Origin: Octopus vulgaris
Lineage: Eukaryota
DNA length: 64,000 nt
NCBI GenBank assembly: GCA_951406725.2
Contig: OX597819.1
Span: forward strand, 104,346,001 to 104,410,000
Reading direction: 5' to 3'
Shown here: in pieces, positions 18,279 through 19,762 of the stretch
Numbering within the stretch: position 1 is the stretch's first letter
Layout of the letters: each line of letters opens with the position of its first letter
The notes under the pieces: generated by a model
What the model saw: only the letters and a program-made list of their open reading frames with translations
Databases searched by the model: none
What the model was told of the DNA's origin: nothing
Position numbers and translations under genes: made by a program

Positions 18279-18586
18279 TATATATATATATATATATATA
18301 TATATATATATATATATATATATATATATATATATATATATATATATATATATATATATATATATATATGAGTATATATATACATATATATAAGTAATAC
18401 TAAGCAATTAAGGGTTTAGCAACGAATTACCTCACCACACACCGAATTTAGAAATAGCAGTCAAAGAGATATAGCTATTCCTTCTACTAAAAGGGAGATC
18501 TCAGTAAAAACACAGCACTTGAAAGGCAAACACAGACAGGTAAGAAAGAATGAAATGACGGCAATCTATCATACAATTTTAAGTTA

Positions 18587-18678
18587 CCAACGGACGTACG
18601 TTTCGAAATCAAGTTTTAGGAAAGCATAAGAATTAGAAAATTCTACCCTACCCAAACTTCTTTTCTCATCGGCGTAGG
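18587..18678 (-). ncRNA. Type I hammerhead ribozyme (U4C variant), copy 1
   Basis: cctacg-CCGATGA-gaaa..long stem II..tttc-GAAA-cgtacg-TC-cgttgg, with one stem I mismatch. Confidence 0.8.
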
Positions 18679-19169
18679 ATACTACAATTATGAATAATTG
18701 TATATTAAATTTTGAGATACTAGAAGGCATTATCTCAACTCAGTGTCAGAGCGAGCCAAAGCGTTACCAGTACCACGAAATTCAAAGTGTGAGTGAAAGT
18801 TTGTGTCACTAGCCCCCTTCCACCCGCGTGTAGCCACGACAAGATGCTGTGGTCATTTACTGGGATAAAATATGGTTATCAGTAACAATAAAGGGTGAAA
18901 TTAATTAATTTGGAATAATTATTAATTACACCAAGTAGATTTCGGCATGTAAAAGCCTCATTCGAGGAAAATTTAAGTAATACTAAGCAATTAAGTGTTT
19001 AGCAACGAATTGCCTCACCACACACCGAATTTAGAAATAGCAGTCAAAGAGATATAGCTATTCCTTCTACTAAAAGGGAGATCTCAGTAAAAACACAGCA
19101 CTTGAAAGGCAAACACAGACAGGTAAGGAAGAATGAAATGACGGCAATCTATCATACAATTTTAAGTTA

Positions 19170-19261
19170 CCTACGGACGTACGTTTCGAAATCAAGTTTT
19201 AGGAAAGCATAAGAATTAGAAAATTCTACCCTACCCAAACTTCTTTTCTCATCGGCGTAGG
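19170..19261 (-). ncRNA. Type I hammerhead ribozyme (U4C variant), copy 2
   Basis: cctacg-CCGATGA-gaaa..tttc-GAAA-cgtacg-TC-cgtagg, with a perfect 6-bp stem I, palindromic stem III and GUC triplet. Confidence 0.88.
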
Positions 19262-19762
19262 ATACTACAATTATGAATAATTGTATATTAAATTTTGAGA
19301 TACTAGAAGGCATTATCTCAACTCAGTGTCAGAGCGAGCCAAAGCGTTACCAGTACCACGAAATTCAAAGTGTGAATGAAAGTTTGTGTCACCAGCCCCC
19401 TTCCACCCGTCTGTGTTTACCTTTCAAGTGCTGTGTTTTTACTGAGATCTCCCTTTTAGTAGAAGGAATAGCTATATCTCTTTGACTGCTATTTCTAAAT
19501 TCGGTGTGTGGTGAGGCAATTCGTTGCTAAACCCTTAATTGCTTAGTATTACTTAAATTTTCCTCGAATGAGGCTTTTACATGCCGAAATCTACTTGGTG
19601 TAATTAATAATTATTCCAAATTAATTAATTTCACCCTTTATTGTTACTGATATACATATATATATATATATATATATATATATATATATATATATATATA
19701 TATATATATATATATATATATATATATATATATATATATGTGTGTGTGTGTGTGTGTGTGTG

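Follow-up and report, generated by a model that had tools for sequence, protein, structure and literature searches.

Layout of a TA-embedded insertion

Between two (TA)n tracts of the window, the whole 64-kb stretch of octopus DNA analyzed here, lies a 1.26-kb insertion that we call element A (positions 18391-19652). It is made of 1.75 direct copies (18391-19409, 1019 nt) of a 583-nt unit with a GC content of 37%, followed by an inverted piece (Table 1). Comparison of 18391-18826 with 18974-19409, at a period of 583, gave 6 mismatches in 436 nt (18413, 18429, 18545, 18589, 18793, and 18810), and the inverted arm differed from the reverse complement of 18877-19120 at 2 of 244 nt. This repeat comparison confirmed what an earlier note on this DNA had described, namely, 1.75 nearly identical units, a flip at 19409, and a 244-bp inverted copy. 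BLASTN with the unit found no second copy of the family in the 64-kb window.

A stretch of 147 nt exists in triplicate within element A, and each copy carries one private base. This star-like pattern fits copies that were identical at insertion and have since drifted by ~0.7% each. On the calibration given in PMC13282606, in which a distance of 0.09 corresponds to 25 My, the insertion would be about 2 My old.

The earlier note also held that (TA)n lies on both sides and that the locus has no open reading frame, and both statements stood. The stop-to-stop frames wholly within element A are at most 74 amino acids long, and Pfam gave nothing below E 0.01 for nine frames in or beside the element. 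For its 69-amino-acid frame no homologue was found in a search limited to proteins of 37 to 121 amino acids, and no PLE (Penelope-like element) reverse transcriptase (RT) or GIY-YIG domain was detected by Pfam among 131 window frames (at least 62 amino acids, complexity filtered). Searches of prokaryote genomes (with a 24-nt pattern) and of phages yielded no copies of element A. Element A has no protein-coding capacity, as expected of non-LTR retrozymes, and lacks the RT plus GIY-YIG frame of an autonomous, endonuclease-bearing (EN+) Penelope-like element.

An insertion of this kind might instead consist of terminal pieces from an autonomous PLE that was truncated at its 5' end, since PLE insertions are often heavily 5' truncated and leave pseudo-LTR (pLTR) pieces behind (PMC8557442 and PMC4209133, in the sections available). 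We regard this as improbable, because the two hammerhead motifs of element A are just 583 nt apart with no frame between them, where an autonomous tandem would have a 2- to 3-kb RT-EN frame, and because equally short periods recur in elements C (489) and D (~541) of the same window. What we see instead combines 436-nt direct repeats forming partial-tandem pLTRs, a 5'-adjacent, head-to-head inverted, 5'-truncated copy, a hammerhead within the pLTR, and a (TA)n target, each a feature of Penelope-like insertion products. The view of the earlier note that this is a young, non-autonomous Penelope-type insertion is supported by the layouts described for Pen2a and other PLEs (PMC3846280 and PMC8557442, as far as those texts were available).

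Two features are absent from the earlier note, a U.U pair in the downstream hammerhead (position 18589, described below) and a probable target-site duplication (TSD) in the flanks. The TSD candidate shrinks from 15 to 10 bp once end microhomologies are removed. Its C-bearing 10-mer occurs 10 times on the plus strand of the window, twice abutting element A and eight times elsewhere; it is also found at one other TA-tract edge, at 57.3 kb. The microsatellite setting and the eight further occurrences make a duplication of 10 to 15 bp probable, not certain.

The long (TA)n on both flanks could in principle have caused reads to be misjoined at the microsatellites, and such PLE structures are known to trouble short-read assemblies (PMC8557442, in part). 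An assembly artifact is nevertheless very improbable, given the private base in each of the three overlapping copies, the TSD, an inverted arm that ends at a conserved terminus, and the similar tandem or inverted layouts of elements B, C, F, and G.

Table 1. Features of element A and of other TA-associated insertions in the window
Feature	Position	Strand	Remark
Left (TA)n target tract	18278-18392		
Left copy of probable 10- to 15-bp TSD	18378-18392	+	Lone C in TA run
Downstream direct repeat (3' pLTR)	18391-18826	-	Its 3' end, 18391, forms the short end (site 1)
Downstream type I hammerhead motif	18587-18678	-	U4C core; predicted cut 18593/18592
Predicted 583-nt cut-to-cut monomer	18593-19175	-	Strongly self-paired
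Single-occurrence 50-nt stretch	18827-18876	-	Gap between arms on a virtual concatemer template
Tail of ~97 nt between the two 3' ends used	18877-18973	-	Site 1 at ~18974, site 2 at ~18877
P2 hairpin	18894-18932	-	GGUG/CACC base, just before family 3' end; also in B and C
P1 long-range stem	18941-19029	-	Paired letters differ among A, B, and C
Upstream direct repeat (5'-truncated unit, 5' pLTR)	18974-19409	-	Used in the 436-nt repeat comparison
Upstream type I hammerhead motif	19170-19261	-	U4C core; 6-bp helix I; predicted cut 19176/19175
Head-to-head inversion junction	19405-19409		Both arms matched at 4/5 bases (microhomology)
Inverted arm, copy of 18877-19120	19409-19652	Sense on +	Hammerhead absent from arm
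Right (TA)n tract	19650-19739		Starts with right TSD copy
Right copy of probable TSD	19650-19664	+	15-mer same as 18378-18392
Element B, distant relative	20501-20890	+	0.9 kb from A; U4C hammerhead motif 20551-20629
Element C, distant relative	42665-43489	+	1.69 units of 489 nt; CUGACGA core
Element D	1-614		Tandem, period ~541, cut by window start; canonical hammerhead 308-355
Element E	59125-59365	-	Short TA-flanked insertion; compact canonical hammerhead 59257-59223, 16-nt helix II
Element F	20944-21420		Head-to-head arms 83% identical, between TA tracts; arm ends ~90 nt apart
Element G	7640-8272		Older head-to-head palindrome, arms ~68% identical

Elsewhere in the window, Pfam identified decayed fragments of a Helitron Pif1 helicase (23555-24433, minus strand), a DDE_3 transposase (28391-28828), and LINE zf-RVT (5720-6052 and 63659-64000). 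Over 76% of its length the Helitron helicase fragment shares 98% identity with a protein of Octopus sinensis; its nine best matches were all from Octopus, which identifies the host as an octopus. A 535-nt inverted pair (3259-3793 and 5351-5885, 96% identical, both ending at (AAT)n) probably represents two 3' fragments of one LINE family. Dispersed repeats at 17770-17960 and 20220-20390 resemble common octopus SINEs; the stretch 20222-20386 recurs at 22703-22864.

Hammerhead motifs and their relatives in the window

The earlier note had proposed two minus-strand U4C hammerheads with cuts at 19176/19175 and 18593/18592, and both motifs were reproduced by a descriptor scan whose limits (one core mismatch and a helix II of up to 100 nt) were set with the target already known. 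The cores, at 19255 and 18672, read CCGAUGA (U4C) in both copies, not the canonical CUGANGA. Each motif has a 61-nt helix II, GAAA, and GUC at the predicted cut, and helix III is a perfect 8-nt palindrome, ACGUACGU. A type I hammerhead is thus present in each of the two consecutive tandem units, the downstream one with a helix I mismatch, since a substitution at 18589 places a U.U at the fourth pair. Descriptor matches arose in 5/2000 and 1/2000 dinucleotide-shuffled units in separate shuffle sets and in 0 to 2 of 3000, and U4C matches numbered three in the window against none in 60 whole-window shuffles. Both motifs are far beyond chance.

Rfam covariance models returned no hammerhead at the gathering threshold in the 64 kb, and none at E values up to 10 in 18300-19700. 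The canonical-core motifs of elements C, D, E, and G were likewise missed by Rfam. A CCGANGA core was absent from the alignment section of PMC4209133 and from the hammerhead table of PMC8557442 that we examined, and the available sections of the review PMC6765202 do not mention U4C. We found no description of element A in the open-access literature searched on PLEs and hammerheads.

Relatives were sought with a relaxed descriptor across the 64-kb window, which gave eight hammerhead motifs; 30 shuffles averaged 1.8 and never exceeded 5. Two are those of element A, and the others start at 20551 (B), 42674 and 43163 (C), 308 (D), 59257 (E), and 8117 (G). All lie in or beside (TA)n, so that the window contains five hammerhead-bearing, TA-embedded insertions besides A. 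D and E showed no detectable homology to A by local alignment (z scores of 0.4 and -0.9) and were rejected as relatives. Element D has an AT-rich hairpin before its 3' end at (AT)n. The hammerhead of element G (8117-8201) has a canonical core and a 66-nt helix II, with a decayed copy on the other arm. In element F each arm carries a CUGAUGA half core with GAAA ~25 nt upstream, resembling, by eye, a half core near the end of Naiad_Obim (PMC8557442, supplement, in part).

BLASTN of A's unit gave no match to element B. By local alignment, A, B, and C are colinear from the hammerhead to the 3' end (A-B, z 4.7, 0/200 shuffles; A-C, z 3.0, 2/200; B-C, z 4.1, 0/200); an nhmmer search with an A/B/C profile scored the input elements alone. 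The hammerhead of B has a 60-nt helix II and a helix I of just 3 bp beside its junction. Its helix III is also a perfect 8-nt palindrome, ACAAUUGU, different from that of A. Pairing at the base of helix II is kept while the letters differ (GAAA/UUUC in A versus GCUA/UAGC in B), and both elements retain GAAA, GUC, G10.1-C11.1, the rest of the core, and the palindromic character of helix III. Because the same core occurs in the diverged B together with different but paired helix letters, U4C is likely an inherited, kept trait of the lineage rather than recent decay.

Element C has canonical cores, a 68-nt helix II, and an 8-bp helix I. Its direct copies are identical at 336/336 positions and, judged from its sequence, it is very young. 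The 5' junction of B lies 5 nt ahead of the hammerhead core, and the 5' truncations of B (20546) and C (42665) both fall within ~10 nt of the core, at the edge of helix I, in a discovery-biased sample of two.

A, B, and C also have in common a 3' domain, in which P1 is a long-range stem and P2 a hairpin, and end at (TA)n within ~20 nt of it. In both P1 and P2 the letters vary among the three elements while the pairing is preserved. The fold of this domain is better than that of shuffled sequences in C (z -5.6), less so in A (z -2.2, 6/100 shuffles) and B (z -1.4), and the minimum free energy (MFE) structure of B does not fold it as P1 plus P2. We selected these stems visually in three sequences; MAFFT alignments of the 3' ends and hammerheads proved to be out of register and were rejected as a basis for covariation counts or a covariance model.

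Splice-like signals occur near the hammerheads, at 19170-19070 (minus strand), 20579-20680, and 42722-42790. The donor-like signal comes right after the cut in A and lies within helix II in B and C, with a pyrimidine tract and AG downstream. Inspection by eye of these signals near the hammerheads of A, B, and C revealed no consistent intron or reading frame. Introns are frequent in PLE pLTRs.

Predicted folding and activity of this copy

All folds are nearest-neighbor predictions, which take in neither tertiary contacts nor cotranscriptional effects. The 583-nt monomer that would result from cuts at both sites folds far better than shuffled sequences as a linear RNA (z -5.3 on the minus strand, 0/100 shuffles; z -3.2 on the plus strand) and as a circle (z -6.1, 69% paired). 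As background, 4 of 28 strand-windows fell below z -3 with 8 shuffles each; three of these overlap D and C, and the fourth is 12001 on the plus strand. That non-repeat stretch (12001-12583) folds better than its 8 shuffles on both strands (z -3.6 on plus and -2.7 on minus), and no hammerhead was found in it.

The two hammerheads are predicted to be more stable as a dimer (-52.6 kcal/mol) than as two monomers (-38.0 kcal/mol). When the transcript 19300-18550 was folded, p was 0.84-1.0 for helix III of the dimer and 0.92-0.99 for the helix I that belongs to the 19176 site. At the 18593 site helix I had a p of 0.00, and there the upstream core is predicted to pair with the mutated strand instead (p ~0.9). 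We attribute this misfolding to the 18589 substitution, which not only creates the U.U but also gives the upstream core a pairing partner in that strand. A full double hammerhead was predicted to form at both sites (p 0.62-0.80) once the post-cut strand was replaced by its intact version.

A read-through transcript is predicted to fold differently. The 244-bp double-stranded RNA (dsRNA) anticipated by the earlier note was recovered with a mean pair p of 0.99, and in this model the hammerhead dimer no longer forms (p 0), the duplex ties up 244 nt of the monomer, and P1 and P2 melt. If read through, element A would thus be a predicted source of 244-bp dsRNA in octopus. Octopuses are known for heavy A-to-I editing.

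The same models do not support the expectation of the earlier note that this locus would release a 583-nt RNA. Double cleavage here, giving linear and circular 583-nt RNA, would accord with the presence of two hammerheads one unit apart, with a monomer as strongly self-paired as retrozyme circles, and with the abundant circles produced by mussel and coral retrozymes (PMC7229834, in part). We think it unlikely, as the downstream helix I does not form in the fold, its core is mispaired, the dimer is lost in read-through RNA, the core carries U4C, and no promoter was identified. A circle from this locus is doubtful, owing to the downstream U.U with its predicted misfold and the block of the dimer in read-through RNA. 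Published observations, as far as the sources were available, point the same way, since U4C considerably lowers activity in vitro (PMC3088659), PLE hammerheads are slow in general (PMC4209133), eight of nine Xenopus retrozyme dimers showed no cleavage in vitro (bioRxiv 10.64898/2026.07.22.740005), and the hammerhead of PAc (Poseidon of Anolis) requires protein (PMC11167929). For the ribozyme of element A the prediction is weak cleavage, confined to one of the two sites, 19176/19175. In the models a circle from an undamaged master copy is plausible. The family may make circles, of which this copy probably makes few. Element C appears to be the better candidate for a circular RNA (circle z -5.0), although the predicted p for its helix I is at most 0.2 in the full transcript.

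We also considered that, in the same element, the U4C hammerhead has lost cleavage altogether and persists as a relic or as a structural module (dimerizing or protein binding), the templates for insertion being uncut tandem transcripts. The lowered in vitro activity of U4C, the uncleaved Xenopus dimers, and the finding that the PAc hammerhead, besides its need for protein, is dispensable for in vitro insertion (PMC11167929, in part) would suit this idea, as would the fact that neither 5' end of element A falls at a cut site (233 nt upstream and 55 nt downstream). Against it, GAAA, GUC, G10.1-C11.1, the rest of the core, and the palindrome are kept in A and B despite divergence beyond the reach of BLASTN, and a viroid with the U4C variant retains enough activity in vivo to permit infectivity (PMC3088659, in part). 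We therefore treat a noncutting hammerhead as a serious but minority possibility.

Proposed insertion pathway and comparison with known systems

Our preferred reading, which we hold with good confidence, is that element A represents one retrotransposition event of a non-autonomous, retrozyme-like Penelope-like element, mobilized in trans by an endonuclease-bearing Penelope-type enzyme of octopus. A multimeric or circular unit RNA would be bound via the conserved 3' domain (P1 and the P2 hairpin). The enzyme would nick both strands of the TA microsatellite 10 to 15 bp apart, and reverse transcription would start internally at two RNA sites ~97 nt apart, one per nick. The long cDNA (1019 nt) would cross two uncut or religated hammerheads, the short cDNA would cover 244 nt, and their joining at the 4-of-5 microhomology would leave the TSD behind. 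The hammerhead would work as a dimer via its palindromic helix III, slowly owing to U4C. The 18589 substitution would have come later, disabling the downstream site, and read-through RNA would form the 244-bp duplex instead.

The ends used by the three relatives bear on the two starts. When the 3' end of C was compared with every one of the 583 positions in A's unit, the best match fell at 18877-18884, and this is the terminus at which A's inverted arm ends (18877). Element B uses its ends in reverse, with the long arm ending at the family terminus and a 45-nt inverted arm (20501-20545 = 20774-20730) ending 111 to 116 nt earlier. The one-sided extension is thus ~97 nt in A and 111 to 116 nt in B, compared with a published 30 to 40. 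The 3' end of B was not uniquely mapped on A (18679/18678, score 22; 18878, score 21). An attempt to map the short end of B to that of A by sequence failed, so that homology of site 1 is one of P1 position alone, with n = 2.

These ends suggest that the inverted arm was likely initiated at the family terminus from the opposite DNA strand. The inversion could also have arisen by self-priming or fold-back, either of one cDNA or of a template in antisense orientation, or else at a solo copy that underwent template switching during later DNA repair. The 4-of-5 microhomology would let the cDNA 3' end fold onto 19120-19124, and self-priming has been proposed for PLE inversions with junction palindromes (PMC3846280, in part), but here the loop would be 288 nt, a junction palindrome is absent, and the TSD encloses the entire structure. 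The arm, moreover, stops at the 3' terminus common to C, where a fold-back would have no reason to stop. For this reason we favor two-strand priming and consider these other routes unlikely. Twin priming, the model developed for L1, would leave the 50-nt gap between the arms if it took place on a single RNA 2.25 units long or longer. The template may also have been a pair of RNAs or a circle that was copied repeatedly.

This reading matches what has been published for PAc and Pen2a. Purified PAc cleaves and extends both strands of AT-rich DNA, and its two internal starts define a tail (PMC11167929). Pen2a of A. vaga has two direct pLTRs and one inverted pLTR, a one-sided tail, and a TSD, and pLTRs suffice for mobilization in trans (PMC3846280); the same pLTR layout is found in PLEs generally (PMC8557442). 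Possible helpers in Octopus are the PLEs of the Hydra and Naiad clades that target (TA)n (PMC8557442, supplement) and 31 Penelope-like families with recent activity (PMC13282606).

What appears new here, on the sequence evidence, is a natural genomic U4C core common to two diverged families, with 60-nt helix II arms missed by Rfam. The element class itself is known, and the further new particulars are the conserved 3' RNA domain, a tail of about 100 nt, and the pattern of the ends, which favors two-strand priming. More tentatively, octopus may harbor undescribed, abundant retrozymes that parasitize Penelope elements, have a long helix II, and are missed by Rfam and by standard descriptors, with U4C acting as a selected brake in one branch and the insertions recording two-strand priming. 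If so, a U4C brake (dimer- or protein-gated cleavage) would leave multimers uncut for tandem insertion, and two-strand priming at RNA starts ~100 nt apart would account for the head-to-head inverted pLTR, a long-standing puzzle. The finding of eight hammerhead motifs within 64 kb suggests that the ribozyme content of octopus is much undercounted, and short frame-free insertions with two defined 3' ends, a TSD, and a junction would make PLE tandem and inverted formation countable genome-wide. Cephalopod hammerheads as such are not new, since the giant squid has 235 Rfam hammerhead-1 matches (PMC6962438, in part).

Compared with plant LTR retrozymes (type III hammerhead, 4-bp TSD, GC above 55%), element A differs in its type I hammerhead, its 10- to 15-bp TSD candidate, and its GC content of 37%. 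With metazoan non-LTR retrozymes, as described in the available parts of PMC7229834 and bioRxiv 10.64898/2026.07.22.740005, it shares a short non-coding tandem unit with a type I hammerhead in each, low GC (under 45%, within a <45 to 50% limit), a probable TSD over 4 bp, a self-paired monomer, and a palindromic helix III suited to dimers. The retrozyme unit range of 51 to 972 bp given in the preprint includes its 583 nt, while the circles shown experimentally are smaller, at 170 to 400 nt (PMC7229834). Element A is unlike these retrozymes in its U4C core, its 61-nt helix II, its dispersed insertion, and its PLE-type inverted arm and tail. According to the same preprint, animal retrozymes derive from pLTRs.

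With EN+ PLEs that carry partial tandem and inverted pLTRs (Pen2a and Pen3a of A. vaga, PMC3846280; the Hydra, Neptune, and Naiad clades, PMC8557442), element A shares two direct pLTRs and one head-to-head inverted pLTR, a one-sided tail, a hammerhead in the pLTR, a (TA)n target, a TSD of ~8 to 15 bp, and a microhomology junction. It is unlike them in lacking an RT/GIY-YIG frame and in having a tail of ~97 nt rather than 30 to 40. The distance from the cut site to the 3' ends is 204 to 298 nt in A, whereas the hammerhead motif of Hydra-1_Obim starts ~100 nt from its end and, unlike that of A, combines a canonical core with a short helix II. Three motifs of A gave no match to a PLE hammerhead in the parts of the PMC8557442 supplement available. 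PAc, likened to A here from its description (PMC11167929, in part), resembles the proposed mechanism in its two internal RT starts, its tail, and the extension of both strands; it is unlike A in being autonomous, with a minimal hammerhead and close starts in an AC-rich stem-loop inside its frame.

The viroid U4C variant (PMC3088659, in part) carries the same core substitution as A and is weak in vitro yet sufficient in vivo. In A and B, unlike in the viroid, the substitution is genomic and common to two diverged animal retroelement lineages. Given its noncanonical core and the lack of a reading frame, we file element A as a variant rather than a strict member of either class. It works like a non-LTR retrozyme with the insertion anatomy of an EN+ PLE and is neither a strict retrozyme nor an autonomous PLE.
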